A program made the position numbers and the translations under genes. From a virus (taxonomy: Duplodnaviria; Caudoviricetes), in IMG/VR virus record IMGVR_UViG_3300028886_000037, positions 96,001-160,000 of that record: DNA of 64,000 nt. One strand, written 5' to 3'. Shown one piece after another: positions 32,602 through 58,174 of the stretch; position 1 is the stretch's first letter, and each line of letters starts with the position of its first letter. The notes beneath the pieces were generated by a model that made no database searches, was not told where the DNA came from, and saw only the letters and a list, made by a program, of their open reading frames with translations.

Positions 32602-33603
32602 TTAAATTTTTTCAGTATTGATATATCTTATAATGTCATCAAGTCGATTCCAATCTGATATTCCACTTATTTTTGAAATGCATTTAAAGTTATCAAGCTT
32701 AAGAAAGTGATTATTTCTCAGCTCTTCGTAGAACCCATTGACTAAAATTGCATTCCATACTTTTTCCACATCCATCTTAAACTTCTTATTCTTTACTTTT
32801 ATCAAATTAAGAAAGCGAATTATGAGTATGGTTAAATATAAAGCCAATACGAAAATCATAAAACCATTTATAAATTTATAATCGTCTAATTTTCGATCTA
32901 TATATTCTTTACTGTATTTGTCATAAGTTATTATGCGATCCTCTGTTGATACGAGATTGTTTTTGAAGAAAATAGAATCTTTCATTTCCGTAATTTTTGA
33001 ATGAGCTCTTTCTGCTGCTATTTTAACTGTTGTAGCCTTAATATATTCTGATTCAGAAACACTACCTTTTAATTTCACACCATCAGTCCATATAGTATCA
33101 CTCCATGCTGGTATATATCTTTCGTCATTGTACTTAACAATTTTAATACATTTTCCTAGGCATGCCTGCTTAATATCCTCATCGTACTCTCTTTTACAAA
33201 CGGAAATGCAATTATAGTCCTTTTTGATGTCGGTTTTAACGTCGGTATACCAAAATCCGGAATGATTTTTTATCCTTTTTATCTTAGCGAATTTTATATT
33301 CTTCTCTACGGAATCAATAATTGAATTAGCAATGCTTAAACCTATTGAGTCTTCGATTTTATCTAAATTTAATACCTTTATGTCTAAAGAGTCCATAACG
33401 GCTTTGTCATTTCTCAAAATTGTGAGATCTTTAGAAATAGAATTATTATAATAAATCAATCCAAAGATCGGCAAAATGAGAAATAGGATAAATCCCATAA
33501 TGGATTCTCCTCTTGCAGTCCAATTATCAAAAATATGGCCATTTTGATAGTCAGATTTTTCTGCGAAGAAAAATTTTATGATATATTTAATAAGTTTTTT
33601 CAT
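32602..33603 (-). CDS. AT-rich two-TM membrane protein
   Basis: Two hydrophobic helices flanking a Cys-containing loop; early promoter 33636-33667. Confidence 0.75.
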   Translation of the reverse strand: MKKLIKYIIKFFFAEKSDYQNGHIFDNWTARGESIMGFILFLILPIFGLIYYNNSISKDLTILRNDKAVMDSLDIKVLNLDKIEDSIGLSIANSIIDSVEKNIKFAKIKRIKNHSGFWYTDVKTDIKKDYNCISVCKREYDEDIKQACLGKCIKIVKYNDERYIPAWSDTIWTDGVKLKGSVSESEYIKATTVKIAAERAHSKITEMKDSIFFKNNLVSTEDRIITYDKYSKEYIDRKLDDYKFINGFMIFVLALYLTILIIRFLNLIKVKNKKFKMDVEKVWNAILVNGFYEELRNNHFLKLDNFKCISKISGISDWNRLDDIIRYINTEKI

Positions 33604-47520: not shown

Positions 47521-48210
47521 TTAATTTATAGAGGAGAGGGTGGGATTCGAACCCACGGAGGTTTCCTCCTCATATAATTTAGTAAAATCATTTCCATACT
47601 TATTTTCGACGTATTCTAAGTATGGCTTAATCTCTCTTTTCGTAATAATCGAAAGCTCTTTAGGAAATTGGTCATATTTTGCTTGCCACTGCTTAGACCA
47701 ATATCCCTTCAATTCAACATATTTTCCATCGACTATGAAGTCTGGAAGATAGTTATATTCTTTGCCTTCGAATATGTACTTAAACTTTTCTTTGTTCCTT
47801 TCGAATTTTATTCCGTGTTCAAGATTATATATCACGTATGCTAGTTCCCAAGAGCTGTCGCAGAAATATCCTTTATACCAACCCTTCTTTCCACGACCAG
47901 ATCCTTTACGATAGCCACCTAATGTGTGCCTAATCTTATTAGTCTCTTTTATCTTTTGTCGTGTTTCTTCCGTTTGGGCATGTTTCTTATATTCGACCCT
48001 TTCTGGATTCTTATAACATCTTTTTTCATGGAATCTCAGTGTATGCTTATATTCAAAATAGTTTCCGCAAAATTTACAATTTCCACCTTTATTAAATAGG
48101 AATTTCTTATGCTCTTTTTTATGATTTTCAGACTTATGTTTCTGAAGATCTCTTCTACTAGTACCGACATATTCACAGAATGAACATGGCCAAGTGTATG
48201 ATAATCTCAT
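47521..48210 (-). CDS. PD-(D/E)xK homing endonuclease inside tRNA-Ser
   Basis: Zn fingers; GWYKGYFCDSSWELA..YLPDF..YVELKG; C-terminus reads through tRNA T arm. Confidence 0.85.
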   Translation of the reverse strand: MRLSYTWPCSFCEYVGTSRRDLQKHKSENHKKEHKKFLFNKGGNCKFCGNYFEYKHTLRFHEKRCYKNPERVEYKKHAQTEETRQKIKETNKIRHTLGGYRKGSGRGKKGWYKGYFCDSSWELAYVIYNLEHGIKFERNKEKFKYIFEGKEYNYLPDFIVDGKYVELKGYWSKQWQAKYDQFPKELSIITKREIKPYLEYVENKYGNDFTKLYEEETSVGSNPTLSSIN

Positions 48211-48397
48211 ATTACTCTCTCAAAGAAGTAAAGCGGGTGTCCGATTCGAACGGACGAGAGGTTTTAACCTCTGCTTGGGTTCAGGCCAAGTGCGATAAAC
48301 CAACTCCGCCAACCCGCCATAAATTATTTATACAATCAAGACTAGTGCTTTTTGCCAGTTTCAAATCCGGATCCATAAACCACTCGGACACCTCTCC
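47532..48397 (-). pseudogene. Disrupted tRNA-Ser(TGA): 5' half 48355-48397, 3' half 47532-47568
   Basis: GGAGAGG...TT TGA AA and ...GTGGGTTCGAATCCCAC CCTCTCC T CTA; acceptor strands complementary. Confidence 0.85.
48231..48318 (-). tRNA. tRNA-Ser(TGA), replacement copy
   Basis: CTTGG-CC TGA AC-CCAAG, long V arm; C at position 33. Confidence 0.8.
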
Positions 48398-48404
48398 AAA
48401 GTAG

Positions 48405-48492
48405 AGGCGGGTGCAGGATTCGAACCTGCGGCTCCTTTATGGGGAGCAACTCGTTAGCACCGAGCCGGTTTAGACCACTCACCCAACCCGCC
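48405..48492 (-). tRNA. tRNA-Ser(GCT)
   Basis: GCTCG-GT GCT AA-CGAGT, long V arm. Confidence 0.9.
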
Positions 48493-48495
48493 ATA

Positions 48496-48569
48496 TCCAC
48501 CCGCTAGGACTTGAACCTAGAACCTCGGGGTTATGAGTCCCTTGCACCAACCAATTGTGCTACAGATGG
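48496..48569 (-). tRNA. tRNA with CAT anticodon (Ile2 or Met)
   Basis: CT CAT AA loop; imperfect anticodon stem. Confidence 0.8.
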
Positions 48570-48574
48570 GAATC

Positions 48575-48707
48575 AAGATGTCATCTGTGCTCCCGGGGCT
48601 GGACTCGAACCAGCAGCCTTCTGGCGTCTTACTGAGGAAGGTCCTCTGCGACAGCCGTTCTAACCAGTTGAACGTACCCTGGAAAATAGAATTGCGGTTG
48701 ACATCTT
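48575..48707 (-). ncRNA. Scaffold RNA (ACCGCAA variant) carrying tRNA body with remodelled anticodon arm
   Basis: AAGATGTCA/TGACATCTT stem; D and T arms normal; anticodon loop replaced by GAGGA-CCT-TCCTC extension. Confidence 0.75.
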
Positions 48708-48714
48708 TTATTAG

Positions 48715-48762
48715 AGCTACCAGCAGGACTCGAACCTGCGAAGGGATGAACCCAGCAGATTA
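48715..48762 (-). pseudogene. 3' half of long-V-arm tRNA with U73 (probably Cys)
   Basis: AATCTGC-TGGGTTCATCCCTTC-GCAGGTTCGAGTCCTGC-TGGTAGC T CTA begins at endonuclease stop. Confidence 0.7.
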
Positions 48763-49374
48763 TAACAATTTACTGAGGATTCCCTCTATATAGGTTCGTT
48801 TAGCCTCTTTAGGAAGACGTTGGTATTCGGACCAATTACAGCGTCCTAATAGCGTCCATCCTTGCTCCTTTAAATTCTCTGTTCTTTCTTCATCATGTAA
48901 TTTTCCTTTTGATGTGTAATGCGTCTTGCCATCAACTTCAAAATAAAGCTTTTTATCAGGCCATGCAAAATCTAACCAATAGGGTTTTACATAATAGTTA
49001 TTTTCAAATTTTACGTTCTCATTTGTAAAAATGTTAAACCAACTTTGCTCAGCATAACTTCGTTTTCGTCTTCCTATCCATGAACTTGCGCGTCCTTCTC
49101 TATGTGCTTTTTTCATTCCGAGAGAAATTCTTTTGCATATAGCTTCGGTGTTTTTATGTCCTTTACATCGCAGCTTATTTGGATTCTTCTCGCAATGCAT
49201 TTCATGTCTAGTCATTTCACCACGAGTAATATGCTTGATTTTACCGCAGTATTTACATTTTAAATCATATTTAGGTGCTTGGCCATTTTTAATCTTATGT
49301 TCTTCGCTTTTATGCTTATAGAGCTTTCTACGTGATTCGATTTCAGCACCGCAATGTTCGCATACCCAAATCAT
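48760..49374 (-). CDS. DUF559/Vsr-like homing endonuclease
   Basis: SYAE, LDFAW, FEVDGKTH, D..R...L...GW; N-terminal Zn fingers. Confidence 0.85.
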   Translation of the reverse strand: MIWVCEHCGAEIESRRKLYKHKSEEHKIKNGQAPKYDLKCKYCGKIKHITRGEMTRHEMHCEKNPNKLRCKGHKNTEAICKRISLGMKKAHREGRASSWIGRRKRSYAEQSWFNIFTNENVKFENNYYVKPYWLDFAWPDKKLYFEVDGKTHYTSKGKLHDEERTENLKEQGWTLLGRCNWSEYQRLPKEAKRTYIEGILSKLL

Positions 49375-49396
49375 TTTTATTTCTCCATTTTAGCTT

Positions 49397-49484
49397 TATA
49401 GTCGTTCCAGCGACCATATTATTTATAGCAGTTAGAAGAACTGGAGATGTTCCTCAGCTGGCTGGAACCAGTTGTCCCACTATA
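49397..49484 (-). ncRNA. Three-way-junction + kissing-hairpin RNA around late promoter, copy 1
   Basis: Covaries with copy at 54255-54342. Confidence 0.7.
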
Positions 49485-49487
49485 GTA

Positions 49488-49575
49488 AGCGCTCAGTTGG
49501 ATTTGAACCAACGTGGAGATTTCTCTCAGCGGCTTTGCAGGCCGTGGTCTTCGACCAGGCTCGACCCATGAGCGC
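49488..49575 (-). tRNA. tRNA-Cys(GCA) with long variable arm
   Basis: CGGC-CT GCA AA-GCCG, U73, GAGA-GAAA-TCTC V hairpin. Confidence 0.85.
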
Positions 49576-49586
49576 ATATTGTTTAG

Positions 49587-49660
49587 TACTCCGTCCAAGA
49601 TTCGAACTTGGATCAAGGGCTTCGTAGGCCCGTATGCTGAGTCCATTACACCAACGGAGC
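49587..49660 (-). tRNA. tRNA-Arg(ACG)
   Basis: GGGC-CT ACG AA-GCCC. Confidence 0.9.
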
Positions 49661-49666
49661 ATAGTC

Positions 49667-49781
49667 AAGATAACGTCTTTTGAGCTGAGTCCTGAGCCAC
49701 TAGACGACACCGGTATACGCCGATGACTGGATTCGAACCAGTGTTGCAGCTTTGGGATAGTGAAGATGCTGTTGTTATCTT
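49667..49781 (-). ncRNA. Scaffold RNA carrying circularly permuted tRNA-Gly(CCC)
   Basis: AAGATAAC/GTTATCTT stem, ACAGCAT; TCCCAAAGCTG..T arm..CATCGGC precedes ACCGGTG..D arm..CAGCTC. Confidence 0.85.
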
Positions 49782-49785
49782 ATAG

Positions 49786-49868
49786 TCCTCCAGGAGGGAC
49801 TTGAACCCTCACGCCATTTCTGGCACCAGTTCCTAAGACTGGCGTGTCTGCGATTCCACCACCAGAGG
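49786..49868 (-). tRNA. tRNA-Leu(TAG)
   Basis: CCAGT-CT TAG GA-ACTGG. Confidence 0.9.
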
Positions 49869-49872
49869 ATAG

Positions 49873-49945
49873 TGCCACCCCTCCGTAACGATCGGAGATC
49901 CTCGGATTTTCAGTCCGTTGCATAGACCATCTTTGCTAGAGTGGC
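49873..49945 (-). tRNA. tRNA-Phe(GAA)
   Basis: CGGA-CT GAA AA-TCCG; atypical T loop ATCGTTA. Confidence 0.85.
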
Positions 49946-49951
49946 ATAATC

Positions 49952-50007
49952 GAGATTCTTTTGTTTCTTAACCAAAAAGAAGATTTTAGAGTTGCTGTAA
50001 GAACCTC
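49952..50007 (-). ncRNA. Minimal ACAGCAA-scaffold RNA with one 5-bp/7-nt stem-loop
   Basis: GAGGTTCTT/AAGAATCTC; TTCTT-TTTGGTT-AAGAA. Confidence 0.75.
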
Positions 50008-50011
50008 TTAG

Positions 50012-50085
50012 TCGGCAACCTTGGACTTGAACCAAGAACCTCTGCCTTATCAGAGCAGTGCTCTAACCAATTGAGCTAGATGCCG
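50012..50085 (-). tRNA. tRNA-Ile(GAT)
   Basis: CTGCT-CT GAT AA-GGCAG. Confidence 0.92.
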
Positions 50086-50097
50086 ATAAAAAATTTC

Positions 50098-50165
50098 AAG
50101 ATCCATTTTTCTAACGTAGTCTGATTACCAATCGGATGTTATAAGAATTTTGCAGTTAGGATCTT
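50098..50165 (-). ncRNA. Scaffold RNA (ACTGCAA) carrying isolated Thr(GGT) anticodon arm
   Basis: AAGATCC/GGATCTT; TCCGA-TT GGT AA-TCAGA. Confidence 0.8.
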
Positions 50166-50211
50166 TAGTAGTCTCCGATCAGGGATTCGAACCCCGGACC
50201 TGAAACTTTTA

Positions 50212-50285
50212 TCTTCGACCTAGGACTTGAACCTAGAACATCCGTCTTGTAAGGGCGGCGCTCTAACCAATTGAGCTAGCCGAAG
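50212..50285 (-). tRNA. tRNA-Val(TAC), replacement copy
   Basis: CCGCC-CT TAC AA-GACGG; overlaps endonuclease 3' end. Confidence 0.88.
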
Positions 50286-50919
50286 TTACGAACGATTTAA
50301 TTGATGAAATTGCCTCTGAAGTATTTCTCATTATGTACTTCCAAGTCAATCTCAGACATTTCCAACCGTTCTCTTTGCAATAAGTGTCTTTTTCGACATC
50401 CATTGCTTTTCTGCTGGGCCATTCATGTTGAGATCCATCAATTTCCAGATAGATCTTTAATTCTGGCCAAGCAAAATCCATGAACCATTTGCCAAAATGA
50501 TATTCTTCAACAAATGGAAAATTAGAAAGCTCCGTTTCGAGTAACCTCTTTGTCCATTCTTCAGCATAAGATCTTTTACATTTACTTCTCGACGACCACC
50601 AGATTCCGCCATTTTCTTTTATCTGTTTCTTACGAATTTCAGATAGCTTCTTCTTTGTGGCTTCAGTATGTTTAGATCCCAAGCGTAAGGCATTTTCGCC
50701 TGAATACCTTTTGCTAAAAGTTTCACTTGCTTGTTTTACTCTCGGATCATTATCCTTAGTTAGTCCTTTGTTCCAAGAAGGATGAGATTTAGAAAAGCCG
50801 TGTTCATCTTTGTGATGTTTCTGGAGTTCTCGTCTCGTTCTACCAACGAACGGACAATACTTGCAGCACCAGTCACCAGATGCGTTTTTCTGTTTTCTCT
50901 CTTTCTCATATCTTCCCAT
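50263..50919 (-). CDS. DUF559/Vsr-like homing endonuclease
   Basis: SWNKGLTK, HTEATKKKLS, SYAE, MDFAW, LEIDGSQH, GWKCLRL.W. Confidence 0.85.
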   Translation of the reverse strand: MGRYEKERKQKNASGDWCCKYCPFVGRTRRELQKHHKDEHGFSKSHPSWNKGLTKDNDPRVKQASETFSKRYSGENALRLGSKHTEATKKKLSEIRKKQIKENGGIWWSSRSKCKRSYAEEWTKRLLETELSNFPFVEEYHFGKWFMDFAWPELKIYLEIDGSQHEWPSRKAMDVEKDTYCKENGWKCLRLTWKYIMRNTSEAISSIKSFVTSASSIG

Positions 50920-50975
50920 ATTTTATTTATAGGAAGGATGGCACTCTGAACCAGCTGAGTTAACCGGAGAGATAG

Positions 50976-51049
50976 TGCCCCACCAAGGACTTGAACCTTG
51001 AACTCTCTGCTTAAGAGGCAGATACTCTAACCAATTGAGTTAGTGAGGC
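50976..51049 (-). tRNA. tRNA-Lys(CTT)
   Basis: TCTGC-CT CTT AA-GCAGA. Confidence 0.92.
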
Positions 51050-51055
51050 ATATAG

Positions 51056-51128
51056 TTCCGGTAGCAGGGATCGAACCTGCGACTTTCTCCGTATGAAGGA
51101 GATGCTCTACCAACTGAGCTATACCGGG
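51056..51128 (-). tRNA. tRNA-Met(CAT)
   Basis: TCTCC-TT CAT AC-GGAGA; C1:A72 mismatch. Confidence 0.88.
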
Positions 51129-51199
51129 GGGAAATCCACTGGCAGTTTGTGAGATACTGCCTAAACTCCTGAGGGCTACCTCAGAAAGCTAAAAGATAC

Positions 51200-51269
51200 G
51201 AGATAGAGTGGCCTTGCGCCACGAAACCGCATGATGGAGCAGAGGGGTGAAACTTGCTGTGTCTATCTC
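51200..51269 (-). ncRNA. ACAGCAA-scaffold RNA, short cargo with GCAA-loop hairpin
   Basis: GAGATAGA/TCTATCTC-G stem. Confidence 0.7.
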
Positions 51270-51277
51270 AAATTTAG

Positions 51278-51351
51278 TAGCGCCATCGGGACTCGAACCC
51301 GAATTTCCGACTTGAAAGGCCGGTGAACTGAACCAGTTATTCGATGGCGCC
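51278..51351 (-). tRNA. tRNA-Glu(TTC)
   Basis: CCGGC-CT TTC AA-GTCGG. Confidence 0.9.
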
Positions 51352-51357
51352 AAAAGC

Positions 51358-51464
51358 GAGATACGTTCTTTGTGTATAGCCCATCTGACTTTCGTCAGAC
51401 TTGCAGCTTTTCAGCTTATGGATTCGAACCACTTACAGTAAGAAATCATTGCTGTTTGTATCTC
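51358..51464 (-). ncRNA. ACAGCAA-scaffold RNA with T arm + two GAAA hairpins
   Basis: GAGATAC/GTATCTC; GTGG-TTCGAAT-CCAT, AGCT-GAAA-AGCT, TCTGAC-GAAA-GTCAGA. Confidence 0.8.
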
Positions 51465-51478
51465 TTTTTCAAATGTGT

Positions 51479-51621
51479 CAGATACGGCGGATTCGAACCG
51501 CGATCTCAGACGTTGCGACATCTGGGACTTTTTGCACCGTCTCCACGACGGGACCGAAGCTACCTGCTTGTCAGAAGAGATAGAGTTCGCAACCTCTAAA
51601 ACTTCCTATCGGTACATATCC
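51479..51621 (-). ncRNA. Enlarged tRNA-like RNA (acceptor + T arm, expanded interior)
   Basis: GGATATG/CGTATCT acceptor, GCGG-TTCGAAT-CCGC, ~110 nt multi-hairpin interior. Confidence 0.6.
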
Positions 51622-52414
51622 TACGCTTAGTAGCGGGACCGGGACTAGAGTCCCGGTCAGAAATGCTAAAACTTTCTTGAATTTTGATAGTCTGTAATAA
51701 TCTGAAAATTTCGTTTTCTCTTTCAATTTTAGAAAGTTTTTGAAATTCAGACCATCTAATTCTTTTTAAGAGCATCCAACCGTTTTCTATTAAAAATTCC
51801 GTTCTGATCTTGTCGTGTTCGATACCTTCTTTAGTATAGTGCTGTTCTCCATCAACTTCAATGTATATTTTTGATTTAGTCCATGCAAAATCTAAAGTAT
51901 ATCGGCCAACTTGATGTTGAGTTTCGGCATCTGTAAATATAGTTTCAAAATACTCTTCAGCATAAGATTTTCTTTTGTTTAACCAATTACAGTGTGTACC
52001 GCTAAGATTTTTAATAGCTGCATCTGATAATTTCCTTTTAGTTTCATCCGAAGTTTTATGACCTTGCCAAATTTGCTTATTCGGATTTTCTTTACAAAAC
52101 TTTTCGTGTCTTGTTAAATCGCAAGCTCTTTTATAAATTAAACCACAGAATTGACAAGGTATGTTTAAATCTGGATGATAGCCATAGAATTTACCTTTGA
52201 TTTCGTTAATATGTCCTTCTTTGCGATGCTGTTGTAATCTACTTCGTGAATGAAAATCATTGCCACAAATTGAACATTTCCAAATTTTAGAATTCTTTTG
52301 TATTCCTCTATTCGGATTTTTAAGACACTGCTTAGAAATGTGTGTTCCTAATTGTGCCCCAGTAGTAAACTCCATGTTACAAAATTTACATATATGTTTT
52401 ATTTCCAATTCCAT
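51596..52414 (-). CDS. DUF559/Vsr-like homing endonuclease inside an initiator-tRNA remnant
   Basis: Three Zn fingers, SYAE, LDFAW, IEVDGEQH; probable start MELEIKH after TATAAATA. Confidence 0.85.
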   Translation of the reverse strand: MELEIKHICKFCNMEFTTGAQLGTHISKQCLKNPNRGIQKNSKIWKCSICGNDFHSRSRLQQHRKEGHINEIKGKFYGYHPDLNIPCQFCGLIYKRACDLTRHEKFCKENPNKQIWQGHKTSDETKRKLSDAAIKNLSGTHCNWLNKRKSYAEEYFETIFTDAETQHQVGRYTLDFAWTKSKIYIEVDGEQHYTKEGIEHDKIRTEFLIENGWMLLKRIRWSEFQKLSKIERENEIFRLLQTIKIQESFSISDRDSSPGPATKRRICTDRKF

Positions 52415-52448
52415 ATAGTATTTATAACATGAGCTAACCACTGCTCTA
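51631..52448 (-). pseudogene. Disrupted initiator-type tRNA-Met: D arm 52431-52448, T arm/acceptor remnant 51631-51657
   Basis: TAGAGCAGTGGTTAGCTC and ACCGGG-ACTCTAGT-CCCGGT-CCCGCT A CTA. Confidence 0.65.
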
Positions 52449-52453
52449 AATTA

Positions 52454-52537
52454 TAGCGGGAGCCAGAGTCGGACTGGCACAAGCATTATCTGTCCCTGGG
52501 TTATGAGCCCAGTATCTTACCATTAGACTATCCCGCG
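52454..52537 (-). tRNA. Initiator-type tRNA-Met(CAT) with long variable region
   Basis: C1 mismatch, CTGGG-CT CAT AA-CCCAG, 17-nt V region. Confidence 0.8.
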
Positions 52538-52544
52538 ATAATAG

Positions 52545-52619
52545 TGGACCGTAAGGGAATCGAACCCTTGACATCCAGCTTGCAAAGCTGGCGCTCTACC
52601 AAAACTGAGCTAACAGCCC
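52545..52619 (-). tRNA. tRNA-Ala(TGC)
   Basis: G3:U70; CCAGC-TT TGC AA-GCTGG. Confidence 0.92.
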
Positions 52620-52624
52620 GAAAG

Positions 52625-52677
52625 AATCTGTGAATGGCTCTGACCTCGAAAGGTTCTCCGTACTTACATCACAGATT
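52625..52677 (-). ncRNA. Structured RNA, TGATGTAAGTA family copy 2
   Basis: AATCTGTGA/TCACAGATT stem, ACCT-TTCG-AGGT hairpin. Confidence 0.55.
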
Positions 52678-52681
52678 TTAG

Positions 52682-52754
52682 CTGTCCCACCTGGACTCGA
52701 ACCAGGGACGGGGTGATTAACAGTCACCTACTCTACCAACTGAGCTATGGGACA
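52682..52754 (-). tRNA. tRNA-Asn(GTT)
   Basis: GGTGA-CT GTT AA-TCACC, G73. Confidence 0.92.
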
Positions 52755-52758
52755 TTAA

Positions 52759-52855
52759 AGATAAAGCCGAAGATTTCAATATGCAGATCGGATTCTCGAT
52801 CCAGATCTTTTTTGTTTGATTCTAATATAGAAACTTCTTTCGGGTTTGTAAACCC
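52759..52855 (-). promoter_or_regulatory. Promoter + hairpin/boxA-like leader of tRNA operon
   Basis: GGGTTTAC..TATATT, AGATC hairpin, TGCATATTGAAA, TTCGGCTTTATCT. Confidence 0.7.
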
Positions 52856-52894
52856 TCTTTCTCAGAATTTTTTGAGAAAGTTGTTTATTTATAG

Positions 52895-52967
52895 CTCCCT
52901 GTGGACGACTTGAACGACCGACATCGAAATTACAAATTTCGCGTTCTACCAACTGAACTAACAGGGA
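52895..52967 (-). tRNA. tRNA-Thr(TGT)
   Basis: CGAAA-TT TGT AA-TTTCG; U1-A72, G73 body. Confidence 0.85.
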
Positions 52968-52977
52968 ATAAGAGCGC

Positions 52978-53043
52978 TGAGGATATGAGTGAAAAGCTAT
53001 CTCGAGTTCACAGTTCATCGGATATCCTCTCTAAGCATCCTCA
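52978..53043 (-). ncRNA. Structured RNA, GTGAAYTCGAGATA family copy 2
   Basis: TGAGGAT/ATCCTCA closing stem; shares GCT(C)TAGAGAG and GTGAAYTCGAGATA with 46357-46450. Confidence 0.5.
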
Positions 53044-53052
53044 TCTTCACGT

Positions 53053-53128
53053 GATCGACGAGTGGATTGGAACCACCGCACCAGGCCCCGAATGGGCCTG
53101 CGCTCTACCATGCTGAGCTACGAAGATA
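53053..53128 (-). pseudogene. tRNA-like element with extended anticodon stem
   Basis: D and T arms normal; CAGGCCC-ATTCG-GGGCCTG; mismatched acceptor. Confidence 0.6.
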
Positions 53129-53156
53129 CGTCCTTGAATTCAGACGCTTAGATTAG

Positions 53157-53240
53157 TGGGTAAGGTAGGATTCGAACCTACTAAGCCCGAAGGCAACGGC
53201 TTTACAGGCCGCCCCAACTCACCATCGTTGGCGCTTACCC
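53157..53240 (-). tRNA. tRNA-Tyr(GTA)
   Basis: GCGGC-CT GTA AA-GCCGT, long V arm. Confidence 0.9.
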
Positions 53241-53244
53241 TTGT

Positions 53245-53528
53245 ACGGCCGGTCATTTATAGTCTTGTGACCGAAGACTTTACCCAACTCACGCTTATGC
53301 CGTTATTTTTCGCGATAGAACCATCACATGTGATGGTAGAATCGAATTCAAGATTCCAGCGGCCTGGTCAGGATGCTTATGCCTATGCTCTCCCCTGACT
53401 CCTTCACAGCCTTCGTCCGCTTGTCTATACGGACTTCTGCTGATCAACCAGTAAGCGCCCTTCCATTGGATCCAATTGACGGCGAAGTAGCGCTCAATGT
53501 AGCGGCCTTTGCAAGGATGGCGACTCCA
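53245..53528 (-). ncRNA. Candidate structured ncRNA with 3' H-type pseudoknot
   Basis: AGTCTT-CGGTCAC-AAGACT-ATAAA-TGACCG; other hairpins; no credible ORF. Confidence 0.5.
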
Positions 53529-54230
53529 CTATTGCCAGAGTCTCTCCTTCAATTCATAGCGGGACCGATGGGATTCGAACCCACAGCCTCCAGCCTTATT
53601 TTCATAAAGCATTTCTATTCGTTCAGTCCCGTATTTTTTATAAACGTACTCTAAATACTTTTTCATCTCTCTTCTATATAGGACGATTAACGGATATTTG
53701 AAAGTTCTTAATTTTTCCTCCCATCTATTATTTCTACGTCCTTTTATTTCATAATATGTATCGCCTATTTTAAAATCAGGATAGTATTTATGGATTTCTC
53801 CATTGCTTACATATTCAAAGCCTATTTTATTTCTCTCAAATTCTATTCCGTGATCTAAATTATAAATTACGAAAGCTAATTCCCAACGTGAATTGCAATA
53901 AAAGCCTTTATACCATCCAGAATAAATAGTACCAGATTTTTCTCTATAACCACCGCATCCAGCAGCTTTAGAAGTCTCTCTTAACTTCTCTTTTAATTCG
54001 TCCGTCATTCTATGCTTTCTATAGCAATCTTTACAAAATCCGGTCGAATTACGATTATCTAAAGATTTTCCGCAGTCTTTACAAAATCTCTTTTCAGTTT
54101 TTGAAAATAGTTTTGATAGTCTTCTCTTTAGTTCTTCTGTTCTTATTCTGCTATTAGCGCATGCTCTTGAGCAGAATCTTCCGCTTCCAAAAGAGCCATC
54201 ATGCTCTTTTCCACATTTTTCGCAGATCAT
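53529..54230 (-). CDS. PD-(D/E)xK homing endonuclease reading into tRNA-Asp 3' half
   Basis: GWYKGFYCNSRWELA..YYPDF..YYEIKG; paralogue of 47521..48210. Confidence 0.85.
   Translation of the reverse strand: MICEKCGKEHDGSFGSGRFCSRACANSRIRTEELKRRLSKLFSKTEKRFCKDCGKSLDNRNSTGFCKDCYRKHRMTDELKEKLRETSKAAGCGGYREKSGTIYSGWYKGFYCNSRWELAFVIYNLDHGIEFERNKIGFEYVSNGEIHKYYPDFKIGDTYYEIKGRRNNRWEEKLRTFKYPLIVLYRREMKKYLEYVYKKYGTERIEMLYENKAGGCGFESHRSRYELKERLWQ
53560..53594 (-). pseudogene. 3' half of tRNA-Asp
   Basis: GCTGG-AGGCT-GTGGGTTCGAATCCCAT-CGGTCCC G CTA; Asp identity inferred from acceptor and G73. Confidence 0.7.
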
Positions 54231-54254
54231 ATAGCCTCTTTTAACTTTATTTTA

Positions 54255-54342
54255 ACGAGGATCCTTCCATATCCTCGTATTATTTATAGAGGTTAGATCG
54301 AATGGCGAATTCGATCAGGAGGTGGAAGCCTCTTGTCCCTCT
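54255..54342 (-). ncRNA. Three-way-junction + kissing-hairpin RNA around late promoter, copy 2
   Basis: Covaries with copy at 49397-49484. Confidence 0.7.
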
Positions 54343-54348
54343 TTTTAA

Positions 54349-54422
54349 CGATGCCGGCGAGATTCGAACTCGCGTATGTCGGTTAGACAGACCGATGTGT
54401 TAGGCCACTTCACCACGGCACC
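54349..54422 (-). tRNA. tRNA-Asp(GTC), replacement copy
   Basis: TCGGT-CT GTC TA-ACCGA, G73. Confidence 0.9.
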
Positions 54423-54428
54423 AGAGAC

Positions 54429-55289
54429 GAGATAGTTTTTCTTACGCGCTCTACCAGTTGAGCTACCTCACAGCATGGCTGCAAGGACGTTAAAATACAC
54501 ATCTCAATAATATCTTCCTATTAGTAATTTATCAGAACTAAAAGCCGATGAATTACAAATATATTCTTTATATTTTGGTATATAACACTTAAATAATCTT
54601 ACAATTTCTGGCAAAAGAGGAATGTTTTCTAATTTTGCAAATTCTCTAATTGACTTATAATTTCCAGAATGGAAATAGTCCCATAATTCCCTTGCTCTAT
54701 TAAATGCACTTATTTTACTTTTGTTAAAGAGTATACTATTTTCTCCTCTAAATAGATTTCTTCCAAGAACCCAATCCTTATTAGGTAAAATTTTGAATTT
54801 TTTGCATTCTCCATTGATTCTATTCGTATACCATTTAGTTCCGTATTGTGAATTTTTATTTCCTTTTTGTTTCAATTTCATACTTTCAGAAACGTATTTT
54901 GCAAATTCTGTTCTAAGCTTTTCGTATGCTCTAGAATTCATATAACGACTCTTATCTTCTGTAGGATGTCCTCTCATCCTCCAGAAGGCATACATCATTT
55001 TTCTTCTCTCATCTGTTCCCTTCTTGAATATCTTTACCAATAGCCAATGACAGAGGAAATGCTCTCTAGCAGTCAAAGGAACTAAGTTATCACGTTGATC
55101 CGATCCTCCTAAAGAACTAGGAAGAATATGATGTTCTTCATAATAACCTTCCGGTTTTCCTCTTATCTTTGCCCTATATACTATTTTCAGATAAACTTTT
55201 CTATAATCCATGTATTATTTATACATTTCATATCTCGAACCCGCAACATCGGTCTTAACAGGACATTTGAGAGTTGCTGTAACTACCTC
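54429..55289 (-). ncRNA. ACAGCAA-scaffold RNA carrying permuted tRNA-Asn(GTT), interrupted by an HNH gene
   Basis: GAGGTAGTT/AACTATCTC stem; GTC-CT GTT AA-GACCG..GCGGGTTCGAG | HNH | CCTTGCAGC-CAT-GCTGTGAGG-D arm. Confidence 0.8.
54504..55211 (-). CDS. HNH homing endonuclease
   Basis: EEHHILPSSLGG...NLVPLTAREHFLCH; paralogue of 33649..34359. Confidence 0.88.
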   Translation of the reverse strand: MDYRKVYLKIVYRAKIRGKPEGYYEEHHILPSSLGGSDQRDNLVPLTAREHFLCHWLLVKIFKKGTDERRKMMYAFWRMRGHPTEDKSRYMNSRAYEKLRTEFAKYVSESMKLKQKGNKNSQYGTKWYTNRINGECKKFKILPNKDWVLGRNLFRGENSILFNKSKISAFNRARELWDYFHSGNYKSIREFAKLENIPLLPEIVRLFKCYIPKYKEYICNSSAFSSDKLLIGRYY

Positions 55290-56986: not shown

Positions 56987-57019
56987 AAGATCTCCAAGTT
57001 TTTAGTGTTGTATTTATAG

Positions 57020-57091
57020 TGCGGGTGGCGGGGTTCGAACCCACGACTCGAAGATTAAAATTTAGTACTCTACCAACTGAGTTACACCCAC
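57020..57091 (-). pseudogene. tRNA-Lys(TTT)-like gene with unpaired anticodon stem
   Basis: Acceptor, D, T arms intact; CTAAA cannot pair with TCTTC. Confidence 0.7.
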
Positions 57092-58018: not shown

Positions 58019-58091
58019 TCAGCGTGAGTGGGAACGATCCACTGACCTCACCGCCCCGAACGGTGCGCTCTACCAGCTGAGCTACACGCTG
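58019..58091 (-). tRNA. tRNA-Pro(CGG)
   Basis: CACCG-TT CGG GG-CGGTG. Confidence 0.88.
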
Positions 58092-58098
58092 AAATTAG

Positions 58099-58174
58099 CT
58101 GGGAAGGCAGGATTCGAACCTGCGATTTCTAGGGCATTACAGTGCCGTGGCATACCAGACTTGCCGACAACCCA
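58099..58174 (-). pseudogene. tRNA-like gene with 6-nt anticodon loop (CTGTAA), Asn/Gln-type body
   Basis: GGCA-CTGTAA-TGCC; U1-A72, G73; mismatches in acceptor. Confidence 0.6.

Follow-up and report, generated by a model that had tools for sequence, protein, structure and literature searches.

In phage Aeh1, nrdA is split by mobE, and intronless homing with localised marker exclusion has reportedly been described for the T4 nucleases SegF and SegG. Another T4 nuclease, SegB, homes within the transfer RNA (tRNA) cluster of this phage and excludes the tRNA markers of T2L (PMC2330249), and SegB homologues are statistically enriched beside tRNAs (PMC2330249; PMC13096335). Vsr-like nucleases constitute a homing family that fractures phage genes, with split inteins making these genes functional again (Dassa et al. 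2009, PMC2677866). I-Ssp6803I, mentioned in the same paper (PMC2677866), is a PD-(D/E)xK homing endonuclease of a group I intron in a cyanobacterial tRNA-fMet gene. Here we describe a tRNA array with inserted nuclease genes in a DNA stretch of 64,000 nucleotides (nt), called the window, which corresponds to bases 96001-160000 of the 247,923-base-pair IMG/VR record IMGVR_UViG_3300028886_000037. The record belongs to an uncultured T4-like phage of ~248 kilobases, and the T4-type genes in the window include those for the topoisomerase II large subunit and the portal protein. The array extends on the minus strand from 59415 to 46045 and contains 37 tRNA calls (ARAGORN), which were confirmed by Rfam. 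Six open reading frames (ORFs) of 204-281 amino acids, referred to as nucleases 1 to 6, are located within it, and five of the resulting cassettes lie between, or next to, pieces of broken tRNA genes. With a probability of about three in four, we consider that free-standing homing endonuclease cassettes have repeatedly entered the array, each of them associated with a single tRNA identity and moving with a linked allele that is presumably immune.

Cassettes, broken tRNA genes and empty sites

The sites were compared with loci that have syntenic arrays, each with a different complement of nucleases. L005 and L006 are IMG/VR loci retrieved with the protein encoded upstream of the array, and L007 to L015 are nine metagenome loci retrieved with a profile of this upstream flank protein. 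In IMG/VR the same profile returned nothing beyond L005 and L006, the downstream flank protein used as bait found no relatives, and a DNA comparison with GenBank phages revealed nothing similar except for one mycobacteriophage tRNA. In L007, whose flank protein shows 97% identity, the five sites are all free of nucleases, and the pieces of Ser(UGA), Asp(GUC) and initiator tRNA genes found in the window correspond to genes that are intact and CTA-ending in this locus. L012 shares the intact Asp and fMet alleles, and an intact Val matching the window halves is present in L006, with a variant of it in L007 and L009. Thus, as the preliminary description of the window had expected of nuclease-free relatives, one intact CTA-ending tRNA and no substitute were found for Ser, Asp and fMet in L007 and L012 and for Val in L006, L007 and L009; other relatives, discussed below, departed from this expectation. 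The intact tRNAs of nuclease-free relatives span the breakpoints of the window, and the insertion polymorphism with respect to L007 amounts to ~745-890 nt at the HNH, Asp, fMet, Cys and Ser sites, between flanks that are 83-94% identical. The Val insert was defined against L006 instead of L007.

Each of the six nuclease ORFs has one copy of the T4 late-promoter motif TATAAATA directly upstream. This motif occurs 18 times in the window, compared to 0.93 expected copies, and 18/18 are on the minus strand, as are all the cassette features given below. The GC content of the six nucleases (0.31-0.39) is lower than that of core genes (~0.50). In the Val, fMet and HNH cassettes (50920-50931, 52412-52426 and 55209-55223) the distance from TATAAATA to the ATG is just 4 nt, so that, if the motif is a late promoter, a leader or a ribosome-binding site would not fit.

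At the Ser site, the 5' half of the resident tRNA-Ser(UGA) (48354-48397), comprising acceptor, D arm and an anticodon arm in which the anticodon is still legible, matches the Ser(UGA) of L007 at 19172 in 41/45 positions. The 3' half with its CTA (47529-47571) is identical to the L007 gene over 36/36 positions, and the acceptor strands of both halves pair 7/7. Between the halves lie TATAAATA (48325-48332), a second Ser(UGA) just downstream of it (48231-48318; ARAGORN; Rfam 44.8 bits) and nuclease 1 (47521-48210, GC 0.34), which has C2H2 zinc fingers and a PD-(D/E)xK domain. The second, substitute Ser(UGA) has C33, lacks CTA and is 67% identical to the original. The resident 3' half doubles as the final codons of nuclease 1, and residues 217-229 in the AlphaFold2 (AF2) model of this protein have a predicted local distance difference test score (pLDDT) below 50.

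At the Val site, the resident tRNA-Val(UAC) is represented by a 5' half (50934-50970; 35/37 to the intact Val of L006 at 17208) and a 3' half with CTA (50169-50199; 31/31 to L006). The break falls after anticodon position 34, whereas in L006 the two halves follow each other without interruption in an intact Val(UAC). They enclose TATAAATA (50924-50931), the DUF559/Vsr-like nuclease 3 (50263-50919, GC 0.39; PF04480, 40.9 bits) and a substitute Val(UAC) (50212-50285; ARAGORN; Rfam 59.3 bits), which is 71% identical to the original and overlaps the last 23 nt of the nuclease gene. The substitute is also present in L005 and in a further locus, L016.

In the fMet cassette the intact initiator-type tRNA (CAU) of 84-85 nt (52454-52537; ARAGORN; Rfam 50.9 bits), with a 1:72 mismatch and a GGG/CCC anticodon stem, precedes a D-arm remnant of the resident initiator (52428-52448; 16/18 to the fMet of L007 at 16870), TATAAATA (52419-52426) and nuclease 4 (51596-52414, GC 0.33). 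The latter combines C2H2 fingers, above the zf-C2H2 cut-off, with a DUF559 domain (PF04480, 38.5 bits) and starts with an ATG at 52414, a GTG-started frame extending to 52441. The T-arm and acceptor remnant of the resident initiator with its CTA (51628-51656; 26/29 to L007 fMet) is contained in the end of this ORF. The window initiator is 100% identical over 88 nt to that of L005, where it ends in CTA.

The Asp cassette starts with an intact tRNA-Asp(GUC) (54349-54422; ARAGORN; Rfam 57.5 bits), which has U37 and is followed by TTA instead of CTA. A leader of ~110 nt with TATAAATA inside it (54281-54288) leads to nuclease 5 (53529-54230, GC 0.34), with a zinc ribbon and a PD-(D/E)xK domain. The 3' half of the resident tRNA-Asp(GUC) with CTA (53557-53594), which agrees in 38/38 positions with the intact Asp genes of L007 and L012, begins at the 3' strand of the anticodon stem and is contained in the end of the nuclease 5 ORF. 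Upstream of the intact Cys and Asp genes no 5' half of the old Cys or the old Asp was found. A D-arm-like piece at 54445-54471 was considered as the 5' part of the old Asp and rejected; all the relatives carry its counterpart, and it is part of a tRNA-like module and not of Asp.

The Cys cassette comprises an intact tRNA-Cys(GCA) of 88 nt with a long variable arm and U73 (49488-49575; ARAGORN; Rfam 43 bits), TATAAATA (49420-49427), nuclease 2 (48760-49374, GC 0.36) with zinc fingers and a DUF559/Vsr-like domain (PF04480, 35.6 bits), and an orphan 3' remnant (48712-48754) consisting of a possible variable arm, T arm, acceptor, U73 and CTA. The remnant occupies the position of the 3' end of the single Cys of every relative and matches the L007 Cys in 27/35 positions, none of the sampled Cys genes being a good match, so that it is by position and the retained U73 only that it is assigned to Cys. 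The intact window Cys occupies the position of the L007 Cys and is 82% identical to it. Long-arm (88-89 nt, class II-like) tRNA-Cys(GCA) genes with U73 were seen at 49488-49575 in the window and at L007:18671-18759, L015:16133-16221 and L034:1300-1388; this is an established allele of the phage group, which exists alongside a normal 74-nt Cys in other members.

These five layouts had been listed in the preliminary description, and they were found at the places given there, within a few bases. Its view that the fragments derive from intact tRNAs agrees with the matches to nuclease-free relatives at the Ser, Asp, Val and fMet sites (36/36, 38/38, 31/31 and 26/29); the identities that it had assigned to the Val, Asp and fMet remnants were borne out by the intact tRNAs of relatives, and that of Cys only weakly. 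The list was incomplete, as a sixth cassette had been missed. This cassette, with the HNH nuclease 6 (54504-55211, GC 0.31; phrog_655 homing endonuclease, E=3.9e-40) and TATAAATA at 55216-55223, is a clean insertion of ~745 nt in the T loop of a tRNA-like module, of which a broken T arm (55235-55247) and a D-arm-like part (54445-54471) lie at either side, and the module is intact in L007, L012 and L009. In L007 (15630-15700) it is arranged back-to-front, the T arm, 3' acceptor and CTA standing a few bases before the matching 5' acceptor and D arm.

The five intact tRNAs next to the nucleases score 43.0-59.3 bits with RF00005, compared to a gathering score of 29, and ARAGORN agrees on their anticodons. 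The odd loops that had been pointed out earlier, C at position 33 in Ser and U at position 37 in Asp, are real; like the long variable arm of Cys, they are atypical, and the five neighbours are regarded as putatively functional tRNAs. The substitutes are 59-71% identical to the originals, and their anticodon stems differ.

It had also been claimed that the five remnants all end in CTA and that the five intact neighbours lack it. Both statements are correct: CTA follows the discriminator base in 27/37 tRNAs of the array (after correction of the Ala(agc) call by eye), and the five neighbours are all among the 10 without it (hypergeometric p ~6e-4). As a mark of foreign origin, the missing CTA fails for Asp, fMet and Cys, whose identical or homologous alleles end in CTA elsewhere: the identical Asp in L006, L008 and L015, the identical fMet in L005 and a homologous Cys in L034. 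At these three sites CTA is missing because the cassette begins right after the discriminator base, a junction effect, and only the Ser and Val substitutes lack it wherever they were seen. The allele comparison among relatives thus rules out the CTA-less tails as proof of foreign origin.

Nuclease families, linked tRNAs and other features of the array

The two nuclease families named in the preliminary description were recovered. Nucleases 2, 3 and 4 are above the curated Pfam cut-off of PF04480 (DUF559), which is 20.6 bits, and an alignment of the three shows an E-[VI]-D-G-x-x-H block in each, a candidate for the acidic and histidine catalytic positions (E-x-D-G ... H ... D) of EDxHD-type enzymes such as Vsr or I-Bth0305I. 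Nucleases 1 and 5 share 41-42% identity and have the PD...ExK motif, in which P156, D157 and K168 are invariant and E166 is conserved in at least 90% of 29 homologues. Their match to T7 endonuclease I is weak (E=1e-4), with Pfam PF05367 below the cut-off. The AF2 model of nuclease 1 has a pLDDT of 83.7, and its residues 100-209 gave middling Z-scores with TnsA (6.1), Bax1 (5.7), I-Bth0305I (5.4), VRR-NUC (4.7) and Vsr (4.5). A Foldseek search of nuclease 1 against the PDB yielded no match below E=1e-3, the top rows being zinc-finger proteins that match the N-terminal part. Pfam HNH models match nuclease 6 weakly (E 0.02-0.09).

In nuclease 5, the leader together with the ~22 initial codons (54164-54345) shows 86% DNA identity to a nuclease of L006 (13608-14506), which is located at another site, after Pro(UGG), and has a catalytic domain of the DUF559 type and not of the PD-(D/E)xK type. 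Promoter and N-terminal modules have apparently been shuffled among nuclease families. In addition, a GIY-YIG-type ORF in L006 (15522-16151) ends 4 nt ahead of the initiator tRNA, so that in this phage group pairing with fMet extends to a third family of nucleases.

Stronger evidence than the anatomy of the sites comes from the linkage of nuclease and tRNA in other contexts. For 5/5 cassettes, the pair of nuclease and cognate tRNA is kept in unrelated surroundings. For nuclease 1, 1086 homologues were counted; among those with 48-90% identity, 8/8 clusters examined abut Ser(UGA). In the loci L022 to L028 (90, 77, 63 and 58% identity), a Ser(UGA) of the same type lies 20-120 nt upstream of the nuclease, and the substitute Ser allele of the window is itself found upstream of the homologues in these loci and in L042. 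In L042 to L045 (48-60%) Ser(UGA) is abutting, L045 having no other tRNA nearby, and in L027/28 the pair is located outside a tRNA array, between kinase-like and SprT-like genes. The 5' and 3' Ser halves of L024/25 stem from different alleles, as is expected for the residue of a cassette that has entered another allele.

The other nucleases behaved similarly. L016 (64% to nuclease 3) has the same Val 5' half upstream and the same Val overlapping the stop codon, in a different array context, and L018/19 (56%) show the same layout with Ile(GAU) as the partner. In L029 (98% to nuclease 5) Asp, leader, nuclease and Asp 3' half are followed by different downstream DNA, and in L030 (49%) Glu(UUC), a leader and the nuclease are followed by a 3' half resembling the 3' ends of Glu(UUC). 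The same long-arm Cys, as judged from the acceptor allele, is found upstream of the nuclease 2 homologue of L034 (79%), with a related short remnant downstream, and in L035 (53%) Cys directly follows the nuclease. L036/37 (91% to nuclease 4) have the long initiator and the D-arm remnant in another context. Since remnants travel with cassettes in L016, L029, L034 and L036, a remnant in the window is not necessarily the wreck of a gene of this genome.

A survey of the PD-(D/E)xK family covered 80 IMG/VR loci, which form 51 clusters at 90% identity. A tRNA is present within 1 kilobase in 50/51 clusters and abuts the stop codon (start at -30 to +12 nt) in 26/51, and this tRNA is Ser(UGA) in 17 of the 26. 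Domain relatives found in Lak-type megaphages are located within tRNA clusters as well.

Several other features were noted in the array. A tRNA at 58098-58174, to which ARAGORN gives no identity, is the counterpart of the Asn(GUU) of L007 at 12075, from which it differs by the deletion of one anticodon base, resulting in a six-base loop; a similar six-base-loop tRNA follows a nuclease 3 homologue in L020 (3444-3518). At 57019-57091 ARAGORN calls a stop-reading tRNA with the anticodon UUA where relatives have Lys(UUU), with the same loop-side sequence and a different body. We regard the suppressor call as doubtful; the gene may represent one more replaced allele. L005 and L006 lack the Met(CAU) tRNA that is located between the Cys and Ser sites at 48496-48569, and have at its position (L005:11990-12090; L006:18385-18470) another tRNA-like sequence with a CAU anticodon that is not called by ARAGORN. 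This is a further allele replacement, at a site where no nuclease is present.

Approximately 270 nt downstream of the fMet site (51357-51627) contain two T-arm-like elements and no long ORF, and are ~99% identical to L005 (over the first ~240 nt), 97% to L012 and 80% to L006; by analogy with the T4 tRNA region, they probably encode a stable RNA of the array. Another non-coding RNA probably corresponds to 53250-53556, between the Asp remnant and tRNA-Tyr, which is 82-89% conserved in all relatives and has no convincing ORF. Rfam gave weak YrlA-like matches at 53079-53203 and 58067-58125, and back-to-front tRNA-like modules adjoin a recurring ACAGCAA hairpin motif across the array. Elsewhere in the window, a 333-amino-acid ORF at 32602-33603, with a GC content of 0.29 in a genome of ~0.50 and no PHROG match, is probably another foreign insertion.

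Origin of the cassettes and alternative explanations

A cassette consists of TATAAATA and a low-GC zinc-finger nuclease gene (PD-(D/E)xK or Vsr-like/DUF559), in tight linkage with one tRNA of fixed identity. We propose that, in a mixed infection, the nuclease would cut the other phage's allele of the cognate tRNA gene, in or near the anticodon arm, the most variable part between alleles and tRNA identities. The break would be repaired from the cassette-bearing genome, by which the nuclease and the divergent linked allele, presumably uncuttable at 59-71% identity to the original, would be copied in. The first entry into each target would produce an untidy join inside the tRNA gene, so that pieces of the old gene would stay at the ends of the cassette, and these pieces could then act as homology arms in later homing, like the exon flanks of an intron-borne nuclease. 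The linked tRNA would preserve the decoding function lost by the insertion, and the nuclease gene could later decay to leave the substitute tRNA alone, as appears to be the case in L005. This anatomy would fit intronless homing as for SegB, SegF and SegG.

Three stages of the Val site have been sampled. It is empty in L006 and L007 and occupied in the window and in L016, and in L005 the nuclease has been lost: of the nuclease 3 gene only the final ~44 nt remain there, beside the substitute Val and an old 3' half in decay, and the old Val 5' half is gone. Since the Val nuclease was lost in this genome, it is plausible that its clean fMet arose by deletion between the two 8-nt acceptor ends flanking the cassette.

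Several points weigh against repeated invasion by homing cassettes. Target and immunity are both read from the anatomy of the sites. The substitutes of Asp and fMet are clean, CTA-ending sole copies in the nuclease-free L006, L008 and L015 and in L005, respectively, and these alleles may simply belong to the normal gene content of other lineages instead of being cargo. The nearest relative has a similar long-arm Cys in place, and the Cys remnant resembles no known Cys well. At the Asp, fMet and Cys sites, change may have run in either direction. The spacing of 4 nt between TATAAATA and ATG in three cassettes is awkward for a T4-type late transcript. Finally, most nucleases of the wider family simply abut a tRNA: when the opposite side of the nuclease was searched across the family for a paralogous broken half, ~6/55 comparisons scored above shuffled sequences, the candidates being L065 Trp, L060 Phe, L068 Pro, L085 Gln, L079 Ser and L107 Glu. 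This search is weak because substitutes differ strongly from originals, and we do not claim the broken-half layout as general.

The clean sole copies of Asp and fMet bear on an alternative in which, at the Asp, fMet and Cys sites, the polarity is reversed: the intact tRNA would be the resident, and the nuclease would have arrived on its 3' side with a remnant from its previous home, so that here nothing would have been broken or brought in. This is what one might conclude from the alleles of L006, L008 and L015, where the intact Asp is the sole Asp, and of L005, where the same holds for fMet, as these end in CTA and run directly into the same downstream sequence; the travelling of remnants with cassettes (L029, L034, L036) and the location of the window Cys at the position of the L007 Cys agree with it. 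The preliminary description, too, had held that replacement tRNAs already present in nuclease-free relatives would refute replacement, and such relatives literally exist in L006/L008/L015 for Asp and L005 for fMet; likewise, where the Cys had been taken as incoming, a long-arm Cys already occupies the same position in L007, the closest relative. The presence of such alleles is a poor guide, however, since a stub of the Val nuclease gene in L005 shows that this genome had been invaded before the nuclease was lost, and clean sole copies can therefore be secondary. Furthermore, the closest relatives by flank identity, L007 and also L012, carry the other allele, which is the one whose 3' half ends the cassette, with identical downstream sequence (38/38 for Asp), and the intact tRNA also moves with the nuclease into other contexts (L029, L036/37). 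We consider reversed polarity improbable at these sites.

Less probable still is that ordinary intergenic free-standing nucleases happen to lie in an array that decays for unrelated reasons, the fragments and duplicates resulting from illegitimate recombination between similar tRNA genes. The arrays of relatives do hold many tRNA-like fragments, with polymorphic alleles away from nucleases, and most members of the family abut a tRNA without a detectable broken half. Nevertheless, the breakpoints coincide exactly with the ends of the inserts in 6/6 cassettes, the partner is cognate in 5/5, and the same pairs of nuclease and tRNA recur in unrelated contexts.

That the tRNA is the beneficial cargo of a nuclease-flanked island (PMC10448857 for the concept), with variant loops escaping host tRNA-cleaving defences and with gene breakage as an incidental effect, is very unlikely, given that the Ser partner of L027/28 has a normal U33 and that this explanation does not account for a partner that is always cognate to the broken gene, even though the loops of Ser (C33) and Asp (U37) are odd, four diverged genomes carry an identical Asp variant, a sign of use or of recent spread, loop variation has been proposed as an escape from host anticodon nucleases (PMC10264068), and SegB amplifies a tRNA gene and thereby escapes the Septu defence (PMC13096335).

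In the repeated invasion that we favour, the cassettes might be natural two-gene 'cleave and rescue' drives, in which a nuclease reads the anticodon arm of one tRNA and travels with an uncuttable cognate tRNA, with clades of at least two nuclease families for Ser, Asp, Glu, Val, Ile, Cys and fMet that drive array turnover in large phages; this generalisation is offered tentatively. The spread of tRNAs with altered anticodon loops may be a side effect, relevant to host defences that cleave tRNA. If correct, it would explain why phage tRNA arrays are mosaics rich in fragments and duplicate isoacceptors, much of their turnover being driven by selfish nucleases rather than by codon usage. It would also tie in with phage tRNAs as counter-defence and with the amplification of tRNA genes driven by SegB. 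A spare copy would be a third way to tolerate the insertion of a nuclease in a gene, besides introns or inteins and genes in pieces, and the cassettes would be a potential source of natural compact zinc-finger-guided nucleases that may discriminate between near-identical tRNA genes.

Comparison with known systems

The synthetic element Cleave-and-Rescue (ClvR) consists of a nuclease that destroys a gene and a tightly linked, recoded copy that is uncleavable, the same logic as that proposed here for the cassettes. ClvR is engineered, is based on Cas9 and spreads in diploid animals by killing non-carriers, whereas the element described here is natural, employs a protein nuclease and would spread in phages via repair-mediated copying.

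I-Ssp6803I acts on a tRNA gene and belongs to the homing enzymes with a restriction fold; for the PD-(D/E)xK cassettes, both features are predicted. It is encoded in an intron, and the tRNA is recovered by splicing, while here there is no intron and no splicing, and a spare gene would serve instead. In fractured genes, as at the sites described here, a phage gene is split by a Vsr-like, GIY-YIG or HNH nuclease that is free-standing and has control elements of its own, and the Vsr-like family is that of nucleases 2 to 4. Such genes regain their function through split inteins or because the two protein pieces assemble; a tRNA is not rescuable in this way, and a second, divergent gene copy arrives with the nuclease.

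SegF and SegG share with the cassettes a nuclease gene that adjoins a cleavage-insensitive allele of its target, with co-conversion replacing the sensitive allele; for the cassettes, both the insensitivity and the co-conversion are predictions. Their target is a protein gene that is cleanly replaced, whereas here a tRNA gene is the putative target, and it is often replaced by insertion, with remnants on both sides.

The closest likeness in setting is to SegB of T4, which is also a free-standing nuclease gene among phage tRNA genes, and the cleavage of tRNA genes in a related phage without the nuclease, known for SegB, is predicted for the cassettes. SegB, a GIY-YIG enzyme, finds many tRNA genes through their conserved T-psi-C motif and cleaves them at the 3' end. 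The cassette nucleases are of the PD-(D/E)xK, Vsr-like and HNH types, each clade is tied to one tRNA identity, the breakpoints are mostly in the anticodon arm or the variable region, and the target persists as fragments that move with the cassette beside the cognate substitute. What this locus adds to intronless homing of the SegB type is, therefore, a cognate partner for each clade, breaks in the anticodon arm or variable region, and pieces of the target that persist and are mobile.

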